A stretch of 45,130 bases of DNA from sequence record MK373771.1; one strand, given 5' to 3'. The notes below the pieces were generated by a model, which was not told where the DNA came from, did not search any database, and saw only the letters and a list, made by a program, of their open reading frames with translations. The position numbers and the translations under genes are program-made. Shown here piece after piece: positions 3,395 to 19,325 of the stretch (its first letter is position 1; every line of letters begins with the position of its first letter). Source of the stretch: Escherichia phage vB_EcoP_R4596.

Positions 3395-6022
3395 ATGCAA
3401 GATCTACACGCTATTCAGCTTCAGCTTGAGGAAGAAATGTTTAACGGCGGTATTCGTCGCTTTGAAGCAGACCAACAACGCCAGATTGCATCAGGTAATG
3501 AATCCGATACGGCATGGAATCGTCGCCTGTTGTCGGAGCTTATCGCACCTATGGCGGAAGGTATTCAGGCTTATAAGGAAGCCTACGAAGGCAAGAAAGG
3601 ACGCGCACCGCGTGCACTGGCCTTCATTAACTGCGTAGAGAACGAAGTGGCAGCATATATCACGATGAAGATCGTAATGGATATGCTTAACACAGATGTA
3701 ACCTTGCAAGCCATAGCAATGAATGTAGCTGATCGCATCGAAGATCAAGTACGCTTCAGCAAGCTGGAAGGCCACGCCGCCAAATACTTTGAAAAAGTTA
3801 AGAAGTCACTCAAGGCAAGTAAGACTAAATCATATCGCCATGCGCACAACGTAGCGGTAGTGGCTGAGAAGTCAGTAGCTGACCGTGACACTGATTTCTC
3901 CCGCTGGGAGGCGTGGCCTAAAGATACCTTACTGCAAATCGGTATGACCTTGCTAGAAATACTGGAGAATAGCGTATTCTTCAATGGTCAACCTGTCTTC
4001 CTCCGCACCTTGCGCACTAATGGTGGCAAGCATGGTGTTTACTACTTACAGACCAGTGAGCACGTAGGGGAGTGGATTACAGCATTTAAAGAACATGTAG
4101 CGCAACTTAGTCCGGCCTATGCACCTTGCGTCATTCCTCCGCGCCCTTGGGTGTCCCCTTTTAATGGTGGGTTTCATACTGAGAAGGTGGCAAGTCGCAT
4201 CCGTTTGGTAAAAGGCAACCGTGAGCACGTCCGTAAGCTGACCAAAAAGCAAATGCCAGCAGTTTATAAGGCTGTTAATGCTTTACAGGCCACTAAGTGG
4301 CAAGTTAACAAAGAAGTTTTGCAGGTAGTAGAAGACGTTATCCGTCTCGACCTTGGTTATGGTGTACCTTCCTTTAAACCACTCATCGACCGCGAGAACA
4401 AGCCGGCTAACCCAGTGCCGTTAGAATTTCAACACTTGCGAGGCCGCGAACTGAAGGAAATGTTAACGCCGGAACAATGGCAAGCCTTCATCAACTGGAA
4501 AGGTGAATGCACCAAGCTGTATACCGCTGAGACTAAGCGCGGAAGTAAGTCGGCGGCAACCGTTCGCATGGTAGGACAAGCGCGCAAATACAGCCAGTTT
4601 GATGCGATTTATTTCGTGTATGCACTGGATAGCCGCTCACGCGTTTATGCGCAATCTAGCACACTCTCACCGCAATCAAACGACCTAGGCAAGGCGTTAC
4701 TGCGTTTTACCGAAGGGCAGCCGCTAAATAGCTCTGAGGCGCTTAAATGGTTTTTGGTGAACGGGGCGAATAACTGGGGTTGGGATAAGAAGACTTTCGA
4801 CGTGCGCACCGCTAACGTACTGGACGGCGAGTTTCAAGATATGTGCCGCGACATTGCAGCGGATCCTCTGACCTTTACTCAATGGGTAAATGCCGATTCA
4901 CCTTATGGATTCCTTGCATGGTGCTTTGAGTATGCTCGTTATTTGGATGCACTGGATGAAGGAACACAAGATCAGTTTGTGACGCATTTACCTGTTCATC
5001 AAGATGGTAGCTGTTCTGGCATCCAGCACTACAGTGCTATGCTACGCGACGAAGTGGGTGCGAAGGCGGTAAACCTTAAACCATCCGACTCGCCTCAAGA
5101 TATTTATGGAGCGGTTGCGCAGGTTGTTATCCAGAAGAACTACGCCTACATGAATGCAGATGATACAGAAACTTTCACATCTGGAAGCGTAACACTTACA
5201 GGTGCAGAACTGCGTAGCATGGCTAGTGCATGGGATATGATAGGTATCACTCGCGGCTTAACCAAAAAGCCGGTAATGACCTTGCCTTACGGATCCACAC
5301 GCTTAACCTGCCGTGAGTCAGTGATTGATTATATCGTTGATTTGGAAGAAAAAGAGGCACAAAGGGCTATTGCAGAAGGGCGGACGGCTAATCCGGTGCA
5401 CCCTTTTGACAATGACCGGAAAGACTATTTAACACCGGGTGCAGCTTACAACTATATGACGGCGTTAATTTGGCCTTCTATCTCTGAGGTTGTTAAAGCC
5501 CCTATAGTGGCAATGAAAATGATTCGCCAGCTTGCACGTTTCGCAGCTAAAAGGGATGAAGGATTAGAATACACCTTGCCAACTGGCTTCATCCTGCAAC
5601 AAAAGATAATGGCTACCGATATGCTTCGTGTATCCACTTGCTTGATGGGTGAAATCAAGATGAGTCTACAAATTGAAACGGATGTAGTGGATGAAACGGC
5701 AATGATGGGCGCTGCCGCTCCTAACTTTGTTCACGGTCACGATGCTAGTCACCTTATATTAACGGTATGTGACCTAGTGGATAAAGGTATTACCTCCATT
5801 GCAGTTATCCATGACTCTTTCGGTACTCATGCAGGCCGCACCGCAGACCTGCGGGATAGCTTAAGGGCAGAAATGGTGAAGATGTATCAAGGCCGTAACG
5901 CTTTACAACAATTGCTTGATGAGCATGAAGAGCGTTGGCTAGTAGATACTGGCATCCAAGTGCCAGAGCAAGGGGAGTTTAACCTTGAAGAGATATTAGT
6001 TTCTGACTATTGCTTCGCATAA
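3395..6022 (+). CDS. Single-subunit DNA-dependent RNA polymerase (T7 gp1-like, 875 aa)
   Basis: Motifs [38 protein letters not shown] and C-terminal ...DYCFA match the T7/SP6 RNAP family; GGAG ribosome-binding site. Confidence 0.97.
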
Positions 6023-14495: not shown

Positions 14496-14864
14496 ATGTT
14501 CAAGATTGAAACTATCGTAAACCGTGTTGTTAAAGGTGCTGCTCTGGTGTCCGTTGAATCTTTCATTATCGTCGATGAAGCTGATCAACTGGTAGCTGGC
14601 ACTAAGGCTTACGATACCCGTGAAGAAGCTCAGGCTAAGATTGACAGCATGGGTAACTTTGCTGCTGGTCTGGAGTTCGCTCGTGCTTGCTTCCCTGAGC
14701 AGGCTGACAAAGCACAGATTGGTAAGGCTAATATCGTAGCTGAATATCTGGATTGGGTTGCTGCTGGTAAACCAGTGAAAGAAGCTAAGGCTGAAGAAGC
14801 TGAAGCTCCTGCAGTAGAAGAAACCAAAGCAGAAGAAGCTCTGTCTGCTGAAGAAGAATTTTAA
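14496..14864 (+). CDS. Small acidic protein of unknown function (122 aa), boxed by its own promoter and terminator
   Basis: AAAGGAGA ribosome-binding site; C-terminal tail ...EAKAEEAEAPAVEETKAEEALSAEEEF ending in Phe. Confidence 0.65.
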   Translation: MFKIETIVNRVVKGAALVSVESFIIVDEADQLVAGTKAYDTREEAQAKIDSMGNFAAGLEFARACFPEQADKAQIGKANIVAEYLDWVAAGKPVKEAKAEEAEAPAVEETKAEEALSAEEEF

Positions 14865-14870
14865 TTGATG

Positions 14871-14905
14871 CCCTGTCTGCCTTAGTGTAGGCAGGGTCTT
14901 TTGTG
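14871..14905 (+). terminator. Tphi-like stem-loop terminator
   Basis: CCCTGTCTG-CCTTAGTG-TAGGCAGGG then TCTTTTGTG; covaries with the capsid terminator at 23931. Confidence 0.7.
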
Positions 14906-14928: not shown

Positions 14929-15222
14929 ATGCCGACTATTGAAGAACGTTTCCTGATTCACGTAGACTTCTCACCCATACATCTTGGTTATCTTATCACT
15001 ATTCTCTTAGGAGAGGAGGTTTATCTACATAATTACCTTATACCTGAATATGTATGTTTTAGGGATAAGATACACCCGCTTACTTGGGCACAAGAGTGGC
15101 TGCGTGAACATGTGCTGAAGGAGTGGCCTACATGCGACCAAACTTCGACTTCGGAGCTACAGTATCGGAAGACAATAATCTCATCCTGTGGCCGACTGAA
15201 GGTGAGAGAATCGCTCTCATAG
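14929..15222 (+). CDS. Hypothetical protein (97 aa)
   Basis: GGAGA ribosome-binding site just after the terminator; overlaps the exonuclease start by about 90 nt in another frame. Confidence 0.35.
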   Translation: MPTIEERFLIHVDFSPIHLGYLITILLGEEVYLHNYLIPEYVCFRDKIHPLTWAQEWLREHVLKEWPTCDQTSTSELQYRKTIISSCGRLKVRESLS

Positions 15223-16160
15223 ATGCTGACATGTTACCTTATATCGTAGGGTACACAATCAGTGACATGACTTATGTACGAGCCACAACTCGTGTTAAGT
15301 CAGGACAAGTCCAATCAATCAAAGATACACCTGAGTGTAAGCAAGCATGTGACCGTGTGAACTCCTTGCTTAACTCTTGGGTGTATGCAGCAGAGTGTGA
15401 TGCAGCTAAGCTATTCATGACAAAATCAGAAGCTAACTTCCGTGTTCGCCTAGCATTCACCAAGCCTTATAAGGGTCAACGTAAGACCGAGAAGCCTCCA
15501 TTCTTCTATGAATTACGAGAGCATCTCTTAGAGGTGCATGGTGCAATCTTGGCTGATGGTGAGGAAGCAGATGACCTAATGAGCATCGCACAATGGGACA
15601 GCCATCGCCGCTTCCAGCAAGATACAGGTAACGAGTTCCCTATCGGTAGTCCAGAGCATAAAGCATTCTCTGATACTTGCATCGTTTCCTTAGATAAGGA
15701 TTTGATGATTGTTCCCGGTTGGCATCTACTGCCGGGAGGTGAGAAGAAATGGGTAGAGCCTATGGGTTGGCTTGAGCTACGCCGCAAGGCTAATGGTCAA
15801 GTGAAAGACCTTAAAGGTGCTGGCCTCATGTTCCATTATGCACAGATGATTATCGGTGATGACATAGATAATTATGCTGGCATACCTGGGCGTGGAGCTA
15901 AATATGCCTATGATCTTCTCAAAGATTGCAAGACAGAGAAAGAGTTGTACATGGCAGTGCTTGGTGCTTACAAGGCTAAGTTCGGACATGGACAAGTTAA
16001 GATTAAGAATTACCGAGGTGGTTATCGTATCGGCAAGGCTTTTGATCTCATGCTTGAATGTGGTCGCCTAGCTCACATGGCGAGATTCAAAGGTGATATC
16101 TGGAGGGCTGATAAGAATGAAATCTTATGGGGAGAAGGTGATGGATGGCTAGTAAACTAA
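15132..16160 (+). CDS. 5'-3' exonuclease (T7 gp6-like, FEN family)
   Basis: GDDIDNYAGIPGRG and AHMARFKGD match T7 gp6 GDITDGYSGIAGWG and ARILRFNEY as recalled; GAAGGAG Shine-Dalgarno 8 nt before ATG 15132 (track begins at GTG 15123). Confidence 0.8.
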   Translation: MRPNFDFGATVSEDNNLILWPTEGERIALIDADMLPYIVGYTISDMTYVRATTRVKSGQVQSIKDTPECKQACDRVNSLLNSWVYAAECDAAKLFMTKSEANFRVRLAFTKPYKGQRKTEKPPFFYELREHLLEVHGAILADGEEADDLMSIAQWDSHRRFQQDTGNEFPIGSPEHKAFSDTCIVSLDKDLMIVPGWHLLPGGEKKWVEPMGWLELRRKANGQVKDLKGAGLMFHYAQMIIGDDIDNYAGIPGRGAKYAYDLLKDCKTEKELYMAVLGAYKAKFGHGQVKIKNYRGGYRIGKAFDLMLECGRLAHMARFKGDIWRADKNEILWGEGDGWLVN

Positions 16161-16555
16161 AATCTTCAGAGGTGGCAGCTTATAAGAAAGAGCTTATGGA
16201 GAAGCAAGGTTGGAAGTGTCCTCTGTGCGGAGGCAGCCTTAAGGCAGTAAGTCCTATCAACCGTGTACTTGACCATGATCATGAGACAGGTTTCTGTCGT
16301 GCTGTTGTGTGTCGTGGCTGCAACGGTGCAGAAGGAAAGATTAAGGGTGTTATATCTGGCTACGGAAAGGCAGGTAATAACCGCTACTTCCAACTACAAT
16401 GGTTAGAACGCCTGTATAACTACTGGAAGTTGCATAGTACACCTCAGACAGATAAGTTATATCATAATCATAAAACGGAGGCAGAGAAACGAGAGGCTAA
16501 AAATCGTAAGGCTCGCCTTGCTTATGCAAGAAAGAAGGAGGTTAAGAGTGGCTAA
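16145..16555 (+). CDS. Endonuclease VII-like Holliday-junction resolvase (T4 gp49 family)
   Basis: CPLCGG...LDHDHETGFCRAVVCRGCNGAEGKIKG...LQWLERLYNYW matches the T4 endonuclease VII zinc/HNH-like core as recalled. Confidence 0.8.
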   Translation: MASKLKSSEVAAYKKELMEKQGWKCPLCGGSLKAVSPINRVLDHDHETGFCRAVVCRGCNGAEGKIKGVISGYGKAGNNRYFQLQWLERLYNYWKLHSTPQTDKLYHNHKTEAEKREAKNRKARLAYARKKEVKSG

Positions 16556-17555
16556 ACTTCGTAGCCTTTATAAAGACTCCGAGGTGCTTGATGCAATCGA
16601 GCAAGCTACCGACGAGAAAGGTAATGTTAACTATAATGAGATGGCGAAGGTTCTATCTAGCCACCCTGTGGGTAAGAAGATCACCCGTCAACTTGCTCGC
16701 TACTGGCATGGTCAATTCAAGAAGACCAAGAAGAATGGTGATTATTACCAGACTCTTCTGCAAGAGGATAAGCGTATCAAAGAAGAGCGTAAGCTCAGGA
16801 CTCCTGACCGCTACGAGGATTTGGCTATTGTACCATTGCCTGACTCGCCTCATCGAAGTGTACTGGTAATCCCTGATACTCATGCACCTTATGAGCACCC
16901 AGATACCTTAGAGTTCCTTGCAGCAGTGGCAGCACGTTATCGACCAGACACAGTGGTACATCTTGGAGATGAGGCAGATAAACATGCCCTGTCATTCCAT
17001 GATTCGGATCCAAATTTGGACAGTGCTGGCATGGAGTTAGAGAAGGCTCGTGTCTTCATGCACAAGTTGCACAAGATGTTCCCTGTGATGCGCCTGTGTC
17101 ATTCTAACCATGGCTCTATGCACTTCCGTAAGGCAAGCGCCAAGGGTATTCCAGTACAATATCTGCGTACCTACCGTGAAGTCTTCTTCCCGCAGGGAGG
17201 TGGCGACCAGTGGGACTGGCAGCATACGCATGTACTTGAGTTACCGAATGGCGAACAGGTGGCGTTCAAGCATCAACCTGCCGGCTCTGTCCTAGCAGAT
17301 GCAGCGCATGAGCGTATGAACCTTGTGTGTGGTCATCTGCATGGCAAGATGTCTGTGGAGTATGCACGTAATACCCATGAGCAGTATTGGGCTGTGCAGG
17401 GTGGCTGTCTAATTGATGAGTCATCTCGTGCATTTGCCTATGGTCGAGAGTCTAAGTACAAGCCAGCATTAGGTTGTGTGGTTATTCTGGATGGTGTGCC
17501 GCACATTGTCCCGATGCAGACCAATAGTGACAATCGCTGGATTGGTAAGATTTAG
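16548..17555 (+). CDS. Calcineurin-like metallophosphoesterase with about 100-aa N-terminal extension
   Basis: Motifs VIPDTHAP, HLGDEADK, HSNHG, CGHLHG; likely GTG 16548 start with AAGGAGG Shine-Dalgarno 7 nt upstream (track begins at 16518). Confidence 0.75.
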   Translation: MAKLRSLYKDSEVLDAIEQATDEKGNVNYNEMAKVLSSHPVGKKITRQLARYWHGQFKKTKKNGDYYQTLLQEDKRIKEERKLRTPDRYEDLAIVPLPDSPHRSVLVIPDTHAPYEHPDTLEFLAAVAARYRPDTVVHLGDEADKHALSFHDSDPNLDSAGMELEKARVFMHKLHKMFPVMRLCHSNHGSMHFRKASAKGIPVQYLRTYREVFFPQGGGDQWDWQHTHVLELPNGEQVAFKHQPAGSVLADAAHERMNLVCGHLHGKMSVEYARNTHEQYWAVQGGCLIDESSRAFAYGRESKYKPALGCVVILDGVPHIVPMQTNSDNRWIGKI

Positions 17556-17572
17556 TTGACACTATAGAACAA
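17550..17572 (+). promoter_or_regulatory. Phage-RNAP promoter, closest copy to the SP6 consensus
   Basis: ATTTAGTTGACACTATAGAACAAAGG. Confidence 0.7.
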
Positions 17573-17622
17573 AGGGTAGGTATTAGCTTGCCCTTGATTG
17601 TATAGTGAATGGAGGAATTAAT

Positions 17623-18060
17623 ATGTCACACTATGAATGTAATAAATGCCATAATCGCTATGATGATTGCACTTGTGATGCGCATAAAGATGAGAGTATT
17701 AAGCCAGAGCATCACCCTTTATGTGATTACATGTTGTCTAACTGTGTAGAGAAATGTGACTGTAAAACAGAGTGGTTTAAAGAAAGAATGGCTAAAATGG
17801 ATAAGAAGGAAGAAAAAACCAGTAATGATATGGTCACTAAACCCAAGCACTACGAGTTCTTCGATGGCGTAGAGGCAATTACTATCATCGCCCGTAGTAT
17901 GACCGAGAAGCAATTCGCGGGGTATTGCATGGGTAATGCTTTGAAGTATCGTCTGCGTGCAGGTAAGAAGTTCAATACTGAAGAAGACCTGAAGAAAGCA
18001 GACTACTACAAAGAGTTATTCCAGAAGCATCGTCACGAATGTATTGATGAGGATATTTGA
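17623..18060 (+). CDS. Cys/His-rich protein with DUF3310-like C-terminal domain
   Basis: N-terminus CNKCHNRYDDCTCDAH...CDYMLSNCVEKCDCK; C-terminal KPKHYEFFDGVEAITIIARSM...GNALKYRLRAGKK...DLKKADYY resembles DUF3310 as recalled; GGAGGA ribosome-binding site before ATG 17623. Confidence 0.5.
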   Translation: MSHYECNKCHNRYDDCTCDAHKDESIKPEHHPLCDYMLSNCVEKCDCKTEWFKERMAKMDKKEEKTSNDMVTKPKHYEFFDGVEAITIIARSMTEKQFAGYCMGNALKYRLRAGKKFNTEEDLKKADYYKELFQKHRHECIDEDI

Positions 18061-18061
18061 T

Positions 18062-19009
18062 ATGAATATCTTTGAGTTCCTAGGTCTTCCAGAAGACCAC
18101 CGCAACCACCCATTCATGCTGGTGAAGCATCGCGGTGAAGTTCCTGAGAAGAAATTAACTTTTCCATGTTATGCACAGGTGAAACGAGATGGAATATTCA
18201 GTGCTGTTGTGGTGCGCAATGATGGTGCTGTTGCCGTCTTTGGTCGTACTGGTAAGAAGCTCGCAAATGTTGAAGCCTTGGAAAAGACATTTAGTGTATT
18301 TCCTGTCGGGTTGTATCTTGGTGAGTTGCAATCTATGGCTGTTGGTGTTTATCTTGAAGCTCTGTCAGGAGTGGTAAACCCTAATCGTACAGAGCCACTT
18401 GACTTCATAGGCCAGCAGATTAAAGACAACCTGTATATCGACTTCTTCGATATGTTAACTATTAAGGCATTCCATGATGGATTCACTGATGTTTCTTATC
18501 TCAAACGTTACGATGCTTTACATCGTCGTATCGGCACTCATCTTAGCGGGTGCAACGCTATCCTTCCTATCACTCCTTGCCATAATGAGCGAGAAGTTGA
18601 AGCGTTTGCGCAAGAGCAAATAGATGCAGGACGTGAGGGTGCTGTATTCAAACTGGACTGCGATTATGAAGCAGGACACAAAGGTTATCGTCAGACTAAA
18701 GAAGTCCGTAAGGTAACTTATGACCTTACTTGTATTGGCTTTGAAGAAGGTAAAGGTAAATACAAAGGTAAGGTAGCTAACCTCATTTTCAAGTGGAAAG
18801 GGGGCAAGACAATCAAAGCTATGCTCGGTAAAGGGTGGACTCATGCAGATGCAGAACAGATGTTCCACGATATTAAACATGGCGGACGGTTGAATGTCAT
18901 TGGTAAAATCTTTGAAGTCAAAGGTCTTCAGGATTCAAGCAAGGGCAACATTCGTCTGCCCAAAGCGGGAGAATTAAGACATGACAAAGATGAACCAGAT
19001 TTCTTTTGA
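18062..19009 (+). CDS. ATP-dependent DNA ligase
   Basis: Adenylation motif AQVKRDGIF (KxDG) near the N-terminus; GAGGA ribosome-binding site; ATG 18062 (track begins at TTG 18044). Confidence 0.85.
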   Translation: MNIFEFLGLPEDHRNHPFMLVKHRGEVPEKKLTFPCYAQVKRDGIFSAVVVRNDGAVAVFGRTGKKLANVEALEKTFSVFPVGLYLGELQSMAVGVYLEALSGVVNPNRTEPLDFIGQQIKDNLYIDFFDMLTIKAFHDGFTDVSYLKRYDALHRRIGTHLSGCNAILPITPCHNEREVEAFAQEQIDAGREGAVFKLDCDYEAGHKGYRQTKEVRKVTYDLTCIGFEEGKGKYKGKVANLIFKWKGGKTIKAMLGKGWTHADAEQMFHDIKHGGRLNVIGKIFEVKGLQDSSKGNIRLPKAGELRHDKDEPDFF

Positions 19010-19196
19010 TAGCATGAAGGCAACTCGTGCAGTTGAGGTAGCAGAAGCTATCTTTGAAACTTTACCCTGCGGCATGGAAGTGCCATATACTTTACTTGCT
19101 GATGCAGAAGAACTTGGTCTTTCTGTAGAAGCTATCCAAGAGAAGGTTGACGAATTATATGGTACAGACGAAGAAGAAACCGACGATTTCATTTGA
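18981..19196 (+). CDS. Small acidic protein (71 aa)
   Basis: GGGAGA ribosome-binding site; overlaps the ligase 3' end; acidic tail ...DEEETDDFI. Confidence 0.45.
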   Translation: MTKMNQISFDSMKATRAVEVAEAIFETLPCGMEVPYTLLADAEELGLSVEAIQEKVDELYGTDEEETDDFI

Positions 19197-19325
19197 AGGA
19201 ATGGAGATGCTTGAGATGATTCTCAAGCCTTCTTCTCCGAAGGTGACTAAGACTCATGAAGAGTTAATCGTAGATGAAGTGAAGCGTTACATTATGGATT
19301 GTGTCAAGGCACAACTGGTAGTCCA

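Follow-up and report, generated by a model that had tools for sequence, protein, structure and literature searches.

The window, as the stretch of DNA analyzed here is called, comprises 45,130 nucleotides (nt) from Escherichia phage vB_EcoP_R4596 (sequence record MK373771.1), of which positions 16145 to 18060 are filled by three plus-strand open reading frames (ORFs). We propose, with a probability of roughly 0.55, that these are three conserved class II DNA metabolism genes of an SP6/K1-5-type podovirus, that they belong to two expression units, and that the second gene product, a metallophosphoesterase, is directed at DNA. The identities of the three genes are assigned with high confidence; the narrower proposal of a DNA-directed phosphodiesterase or nuclease function for the phosphoesterase is tentative, a little short of an even chance. 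The three genes are already known: they have been deposited and annotated, and they have been recognizable since the genomes of K1-5 and SP6 were sequenced. Each R4596 protein matched its deposited record exactly. The genes are as follows.

16145..16555, plus strand: gene 1, endonuclease VII-type Holliday junction resolvase, 136 amino acids (aa); matches to PF02945, phrog_423, and Protein Data Bank (PDB) structure 1e7d; QBQ76585.1

16548..17555, plus strand: gene 2, metallophosphoesterase, 335 aa, GTG start; QBQ76586.1

17623..18060, plus strand: gene 3, T7 gp1.7-like nucleotide kinase, 145 aa; matches to PF11753, to PHROGs families, and, by BLASTP, to T7 gp1.7; QBQ76587.1

The true start of the phosphoesterase is most likely GTG 16548, which differs from the mechanically called ORF start. 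This codon is 6 nt past AAGGAGG, and the resulting 335 aa equal the length of nearly all homologs and of QBQ76586.1. The match to Pfam PF00149 was barely over the cutoff (21.6 bits versus 21.5) and covered motifs I and II only, whereas the match to phrog_221 (8e-106 over residues 9 to 344 of the mechanical ORF) was decisive for family membership. A first-pass annotation, made from the sequence without database searches, had named a calcineurin-like phosphoesterase and a DUF3310-like protein here and proposed profile searches as the check; such searches recovered both homologies. Members of the calcineurin-like metallophosphoesterase superfamily carry five metal motifs (DxH, GD, GNH(D/E), H, and GHxH). 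In an alignment of 55 homologs that were 48 to 87% identical to the window protein, the metal motifs D110-x-H112, G140-D141, (S)N187-H188, H242, and G262-H263-x-H265 were invariant or at least 90% conserved, and the phosphoesterase has the beta-sandwich fold of the superfamily. A loop specific to this clade, HALSFHDSDPNLDSAG, contained the invariant residues H146, S149, and H151; the structural model had a low predicted local distance difference test score (pLDDT) around residues 141 to 160. The protein is divided into two domains.

16548..16856, plus strand: N-terminal domain of the phosphoesterase, basic and helical, predicted as three-helix helix-turn-helix (HTH)-like

16857..17555, plus strand: catalytic metallophosphoesterase domain, with the family-specific loop HALSFHDSDPNLDSAG (from the alignment of 55 homologs and the hhalign comparison with Bxb1 gp47)

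The N-terminal extension of about 100 aa, which the first-pass annotation had left unassigned, is real and conserved. It belongs to the family, because the phrog_221 match spans it, and four of its residues (L36, L49, Y52, and W53) were invariant among the 55 homologs. When residues 1 to 103 were modeled alone, the mean pLDDT was 90.8, with helices at residues 10 to 20, 29 to 37, 47 to 57, and 71 to 80; Y52 and W53 were located in the third helix. The domain has a net charge of +7 and a pI of 9.7 (family mean charge, +6.8), while the catalytic domain is acidic (−5.2). These features suggest that the extension may be a nucleic acid-tethering module. Pfam searches with the N-terminal regions of the phosphoesterase and the kinase alone returned only noise. 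When 1.84 billion cluster representatives were searched with the phosphoesterase, 1,711 protein clusters (50% identity) matched at an E value of ≤0.001. The N-terminal domain was present in only about 10 of the best 150 of these, and most matching clusters consisted of a catalytic domain alone (about 235 aa) or carried other N termini. In the BFVD entries for phage K1E, the two domains appear as separate proteins (A0A2I4Q1Z7, 104 aa, and A0A2I4Q1Y4, 237 aa), both 98% identical to the window protein; the K1E record may contain a frameshift, or the gene may truly be split.

Inteins favor important nucleic acid enzymes. Intein-like insertions split two homologs of the phosphoesterase at catalytic motifs: P0121 (635 aa) is split past the GDE of motif II (LGDE|C...VNGN|C), and P0164 (595 aa), which has a LAGLIDADG domain, is split past the DLH of motif I.

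The family profile of the phosphoesterase was compared by hhalign with five characterized enzymes: Bxb1 gp47, lambda NinI, CpdA, SbcD, and YfcE. The comparison with Bxb1 gp47, in which the target was a single sequence, gave a probability of 88% and an E value of 3e-6 over 190 columns spanning all motifs, with 23% identity. Probabilities for the others were 7.9% for lambda NinI (79 columns only), 3.7% for CpdA, 3.1% for SbcD, and 0.9% for YfcE. Because Bxb1 gp47 far outscored the other four enzymes, the nearest studied relatives appear to be the metallophosphoesterases of cluster A mycobacteriophages, a clade that includes Bxb1 gp47, L5 gp54, and A10ZJ24 gp48. Bxb1 gp47 is described as the directionality factor of the phage integrase (recombination directionality factor; PMC12287305), and papers citing the work on it describe it as necessary for the phage's DNA replication and as weakly nucleolytic. 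A10ZJ24 gp48 is a phosphodiesterase and DNase that degrades DNA in vitro and in vivo; its destruction of host DNA blunts host defenses (PMC12287305). The replication block of Bxb1 also contains an endonuclease VII and an exonuclease, as does that of the window. Several differences separate the two proteins: motif I reads DTQ in Bxb1 gp47 and DTH in the window phosphoesterase, neither the N-terminal HTH-like domain nor the HALSFHDSDPNLDSAG loop is present in Bxb1 gp47, and the window phage has no integrase for a gp47-like factor to serve. In the Bxb1 RefSeq record (NC_002656; 6876-7788 of the locus), gp46 bears the label "site-specific recombination directionality factor RDF," whereas the literature gives this role to the adjacent metallophosphoesterase, gp47.

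Other enzymes of the superfamily were more distant. The MJ0936/YfcE phosphodiesterases, the PolD DP1 exonuclease, and Mre11/SbcD were 10 to 16% identical to the window phosphoesterase, with an insignificant profile relationship; the window protein lacks the OB and capping domains found in DP1 and Mre11. An Mre11/SbcD identity was rejected on the SbcD score given above and because the window holds no unaccounted ORF of Rad50/SbcC size. A match to the NCBIfam model PdeM (19 bits; cutoff, 150) was dismissed as reflecting the common metal motif. Sequence searches of the PDB with the phosphoesterase, as a single sequence and as a profile, gave no meaningful match.

A total of 642 phage records contain the phosphoesterase. 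Its gene follows those of the exonuclease and endonuclease VII, in that order, in the Molineuxvirinae, Colwellvirinae, Melnykvirinae, and Corkvirinae (in the last two with one or two small ORFs between); by genus, this arrangement recurs in Uliginvirus, Cronosvirus, and Phimunavirus (again with one or two small ORFs between in the last two). In Drulisvirus, the phosphoesterase gene follows that of DNA polymerase and precedes those of the exonuclease and endonuclease. These placements across subfamilies indicate that the stable association of the phosphoesterase is with the replication/recombination block and not with the DUF3310 gene. In Njord, the gene after the phosphoesterase encodes a weak P-loop deoxynucleoside kinase (dNK)-like protein; in the Phimunavirus Pectobacterium phage Khlen, it is gp16 (4040-4519 of the locus), which contains a HAD PNKP-type 3'-phosphatase domain (PF25109, 3e-18). 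Khlen gp16 is annotated as a polynucleotide kinase, an identity that we rejected: it has the HAD-type phosphatase domain only and no kinase domain.

The division into two expression units emerges from the gene boundaries and from a phage promoter. The features concerned are the following.

15132..16160, plus strand: 5'-3' exonuclease (context gene); weak Pfam 5_3_exonuc match, LL11 and K1-5 orthologs annotated as exonuclease

17550-17569, plus strand: SP6/K1-5-type phage RNA polymerase promoter ATTTAGTTGACACTATAGAA, overlapping the phosphoesterase stop codon; predicted +1 at G17567

17572..17595, plus strand: 10-bp hairpin in the 5' leader of the 17550-promoter transcript (+6 to +29); folding energy, −13.8 kcal/mol; z score, −2.58

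18062..19009, plus strand: ATP-dependent DNA ligase (context gene); matches to PF01068 and PF14743, LL11 ortholog annotated as ligase

The 3' end of the exonuclease gene runs 16 nt into the start of the endonuclease VII gene, and between the endonuclease VII stop and the GTG start of the phosphoesterase the overlap is 8 nt (GTGGCTAA). Overlaps of this kind suggest that translation is coupled along the exonuclease-endonuclease VII-phosphoesterase run. The phosphoesterase and kinase genes are parted by the promoter and a 67-nt spacer, and the ATG of the ligase gene lies 1 nt past the kinase stop codon. A pattern search for the promoter core (GACACTATAG/A) found 10 sites in the window, with 0.01 expected by chance:

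2082, 8416, 9303, 12730, 13193, 14424, 17550, 22641, 40115, and 42468, plus strand: SP6/K1-5-type promoter sites, 20 nt each

The site at 17550 is a perfect SP6/K1-5-type promoter, the other nine are all intergenic, and together the ten define the transcription units of the genome. Because this promoter stands between genes 2 and 3, these genes do not form one unit. The mRNAs of T7-group phages often have stabilizing 5' stem-loops, and the hairpin listed above has that position in the 17550 transcript.

The first-pass annotation had read the three genes as a single accessory DNA metabolism module that sets the phage apart from T7. In support of acquisition as a unit, the genes are adjacent and co-oriented and occur together in Vectrevirus and Zindervirus. 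The boundaries described above speak against it, as the overlapping set consists of the exonuclease, endonuclease VII, and phosphoesterase genes, and the kinase gene abuts the ligase gene on the far side of the promoter and its spacer. Moreover, T7 has the third gene, elsewhere, as gene 1.7; the gene that follows the phosphoesterase changes from one subfamily to another; in Drulisvirus, the phosphoesterase and endonuclease VII genes stand apart; and recombination in the N-terminal half of gene 3 is independent of the neighboring genes (see below). A single acquired module is thus improbable. Nor is the set unusual, as the word accessory had implied: all three genes were found in K1-5 (gp21 to gp23), LL11, and the Zindervirus SE29, as well as in about 90 close relatives. 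In K1-5 (gp21, gp22, and gp23; YP_654122-654124) and in LL11, CC1, and CC2, orthologs of the three follow one another in the same order and overlap in the same way. Their DNA is 90 to 98% identical to that of R4596, and the sole difference is the N-terminal cassette of the gp1.7-like gene.

Gene 1 matched the Pfam family Endonuclease_7 (PF02945) with 48.1 bits (cutoff, 23.6), phrog_423 at 9e-48, and the T4 endonuclease VII structure 1e7d at 4e-8. In T4 endonuclease VII, C23, C26, C58, and C61 are zinc ligands and D40, H41, H43, N62, and E65 are catalytic. In the 1e7d alignment, C25, C28, C56, and C59 of gene 1 correspond to the former and D43, H44, H46, N60, and E63 to the latter. Judged from its sequence, gene 1 is a homolog of T4 endonuclease VII (gp49; PDB 1e7d, 1en7, and 2qnc) in which the zinc and catalytic residues are all kept. 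The first-pass annotation was therefore right to assign the resolvase to the T4 endonuclease VII type and to note that T7 has endonuclease I, as the T7 annotation confirms; likewise, no phosphoesterase is annotated in the early and DNA metabolism region of T7. The window protein is shorter than T4 gp49 (136 versus 157 aa): the loop past DHDHE is 5 residues shorter, and the C-terminal part beyond approximately residue 100 was unaligned. Two further matches of endonuclease VII were set aside. A Pfam match to the Rad50 zinc hook (17 bits, under the cutoff) was merely a CxxC motif, and a PADLOC match to a type II restriction enzyme reflected the common His-Me/HNH core.

Gene 3 most likely starts at ATG 17623, which follows GGAGGA and gives a protein of 145 aa, the length of QBQ76587.1. 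The protein matched DUF3310 (PF11753) with 88.1 bits (cutoff, 24; 4e-25) and phrog_2585 and phrog_1689, both labeled nucleotide kinase, at 1e-40; QBQ76587.1 is named nucleotide kinase in UniRef, and the PHROGs and RefSeq names agree. By BLASTP, it was 55% identical to the C-terminal 91 aa of T7 gp1.7 (E = 4e-32). Gene 3 is, on this similarity, a homolog of the T7 gp1.7 nucleotide kinase, and the R4596 ortholog presumably has the kinase activity. The DUF3310 protein had been listed among the departures from T7, which does not hold, since T7 gp1.7 has the same architecture, with two Cys clusters ahead of DUF3310 in the same relative position. The two proteins differ in length (145 versus 196 aa), the N-terminal region could not be aligned, and the window gene adjoins the ligase gene downstream of the resolvase gene, whereas T7 gene 1.7 is in the early 1.x cluster. 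According to PMC11897194, T7 gp1.7 phosphorylates dTMP and dGMP to the diphosphates, and PMC10700055 ties DUF3310 to this kinase activity. T7 gp1.7 also activates the defense protein Avs5 (PMC11897194), and SaV, of the DUF3310 family, is a sensitivity determinant for the lactococcal AbiV system (PMC8306868); both proteins are thus known to trigger abortive-infection systems. PDB searches with the DUF3310 protein, as a single sequence and as a profile, gave no meaningful match.

The gene 3 protein consists of a Cys/His-rich N terminus joined to DUF3310, as the first-pass annotation had described, and the two parts behave differently among relatives.

17629..17827, plus strand: swappable 199-bp cassette encoding the Cys/His-rich N terminus (CxxC...CxC, then HHxxC...C...CxC), delimited by blastn

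17833..18012, plus strand: DUF3310 domain proper (Pfam match, residues 77 to 136 of the ORF from 17605)

The DUF3310 domain differs by one substitution per relative in the Vectrevirus phages CC2, K1-5, and LL11. The cassette had no blastn match to CC2 or LL11, whereas its flanks were 91 to 98% identical up to 17628 and again from 17828. K1-5 matched the kinase N terminus over the first 18 codons only (up to 17677), and the Zindervirus SE29 matched only from 17704, the second Cys cluster. The window cassette is thus a sharply bounded combination of a K1-5-like first module and a Zindervirus-like second module. Eight Cys residues lie within the first 45 residues of the protein, in the patterns CxxC...CxC and HHxxC-x6-C-x3-C-x-C; the second pattern is kept in SE29, P0271, and P0272, and neither gave a Pfam match. 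The kinase N terminus of CC2 and LL11 is unrelated and lacks these Cys clusters. Some relatives have DUF3310-only proteins of 76 to 97 aa, the annotation of phage CR44b gives the N-terminal region as missing, and the N-terminal 71 aa of the kinase had matches in only 2 clusters in a search of 5.8 billion proteins. Because it is absent or swapped in relatives, the Cys-rich region, with its putative zinc binding, appears to be a dispensable and exchangeable appendage.

These results suggest a model with two units. Unit 1 would comprise the genes of the 5'-3' exonuclease, endonuclease VII, and metallophosphoesterase, which overlap in a run; of their products, endonuclease VII, a zinc-binding His-Cys-box resolvase, would cut branched DNA. 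The phosphoesterase would have a dinuclear-metal catalytic domain tethered to DNA through its basic three-helix HTH-like domain, and it may act with the exonuclease and resolvase on replication/recombination intermediates, in host DNA breakdown, or in both, like Bxb1 gp47 and A10ZJ24 gp48. Unit 2, transcribed from the phage promoter, would supply the gp1.7-type kinase and then the DNA ligase; the kinase would rephosphorylate dTMP and dGMP from degraded DNA for deoxynucleoside triphosphate synthesis, and the ligase would seal nicks. We infer the DNA-directed role of the phosphoesterase from the profile link to Bxb1 gp47, the basic HTH-like domain, the placement in the replication/recombination block, the gene overlaps, and the inteins. 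Several points weigh against it. The link to Bxb1 gp47, at 88% probability, is short of certainty, and in one study, as quoted in PMC12287305, Bxb1 gp47 had no phosphoesterase activity. One pelagiphage homolog lacks the N-terminal domain and is located elsewhere in its genome in a different context. Literature searches on this phosphoesterase clade (SP6, K1-5, and Autographiviridae) returned annotations and genome descriptions only, with no functional work. Finally, the phosphoesterase is followed by a variable gene, which encodes a DUF3310 kinase, a P-loop dNK-like protein, or a HAD PNKP-type phosphatase; a role in the nucleotide pool fits this variation equally well.

Such a role is the core of the alternative in which the substrate of the phosphoesterase is a small nucleotide (candidates are oligonucleotides, 3'-nucleotides, Ap4A, alarmones, and cyclic nucleotide immune signals), with the enzyme tuning the pool upstream of the kinase or serving in counterdefense. 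The best structural matches (MJ0936, YfcE, and the Ap4A hydrolase/phosphodiesterase SapH) are small phosphodiesterases, the gene downstream repeatedly encodes a nucleotide enzyme from a different family, and D29 gp66, a cluster A metallophosphoesterase, is reported to use monoesters, diesters, and cyclic AMP (PMC12287305). On this alternative, however, the basic HTH-like domain is hard to account for, as is a gene consistently placed among those for DNA polymerase, exonuclease, and resolvase, and the profile likeness to the cyclic AMP phosphodiesterase CpdA is negligible. PADLOC models matched neither the phosphoesterase nor the kinase, a result that is weakly informative here since PADLOC covers defense rather than anti-defense proteins. 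Overall, we consider a small-nucleotide substrate unlikely, though plausible enough to be kept in view.

The gene order phosphoesterase, kinase, ligase recalls end-healing systems such as T4 Pnkp/ligase and bacterial Pnkp/Hen1, in which case the phosphoesterase would be a 3'-phosphatase or 2',3'-cyclic phosphodiesterase that heals nucleic acid ends together with the kinase and ligase; the PNKP-type phosphatase domain encoded after the phosphoesterase in Phimunavirus would also be in keeping with this. Yet the promoter parts the phosphoesterase from the kinase and ligase, the Drulisvirus phosphoesterase adjoins neither, and Khlen has a second 3'-phosphatase beside the phosphoesterase, which argues against redundancy. 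Moreover, gp1.7 is documented, in PMC11897194, as a mononucleotide kinase and not as a polynucleotide kinase. End healing is therefore very unlikely. It is less probable still that the phosphoesterase is a lambda PP- or PP2A-type Ser/Thr protein phosphatase. Some homologs are annotated in GenBank as "protein phosphatase 2a-like protein." The signature motifs of the PPP family are GDxHG, GDxVDRG, and GNHE; the window protein has PDTHAP, LGDEAD, and SNHG in their place, and the low hhalign score to lambda NinI points the same way.

The DNA-directed reading can be extended, speculatively and with no great expectation that the whole will hold, to a wider role: the coupled trio would be a Rad50-independent machine for processing DNA ends and branches, needed for replication or for a destruction of host DNA that silences defenses, and common to most non-T7 Autographiviridae and, distantly, to cluster A mycobacteriophages. 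In parallel, the swapping of the kinase cassette would reflect selection by sensors such as Avs5 or AbiV. The contribution of this analysis is a sharper, testable hypothesis for a widespread clade of HTH-tethered phage metallophosphoesterases. Phages of the K1-5/SP6 type are used in phage therapy, and phosphoesterase control of host DNA breakdown or counterdefense, if established, would help explain their host range, as would the triggering of Avs5-type immunity by a gp1.7-like protein, if that were established.

With regard to the genome as a whole, the region 15000 to 19200 was 97% identical to vB_EcoP-CC2 and related Escherichia phages and 90 to 93% identical to LL11 and K1-5, and the late half of the window was about 96% identical to the same Vectrevirus phages (CC2 type, LL11, and K1-5). 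By these identities, the window is a Vectrevirus genome (Autographiviridae, Molineuxvirinae; K1-5/K1E/SP6 group). A tRNA search of the window found none, and every gene is on the plus strand. Upstream of the exonuclease gene, a 97-aa ORF (14929-15222), whose LL11 and K1-5 orthologs are annotated as DNA repair protein, shares about 90 nt, in another frame, with the start of the exonuclease gene. Between the 14424 promoter and the exonuclease gene, a strong terminator-like hairpin (14870-14897; 11 bp, then a T run) directly follows a 122-aa ORF (14496-14864); transcription that continues from there into the exonuclease, endonuclease VII, and phosphoesterase genes may be attenuated by this hairpin.

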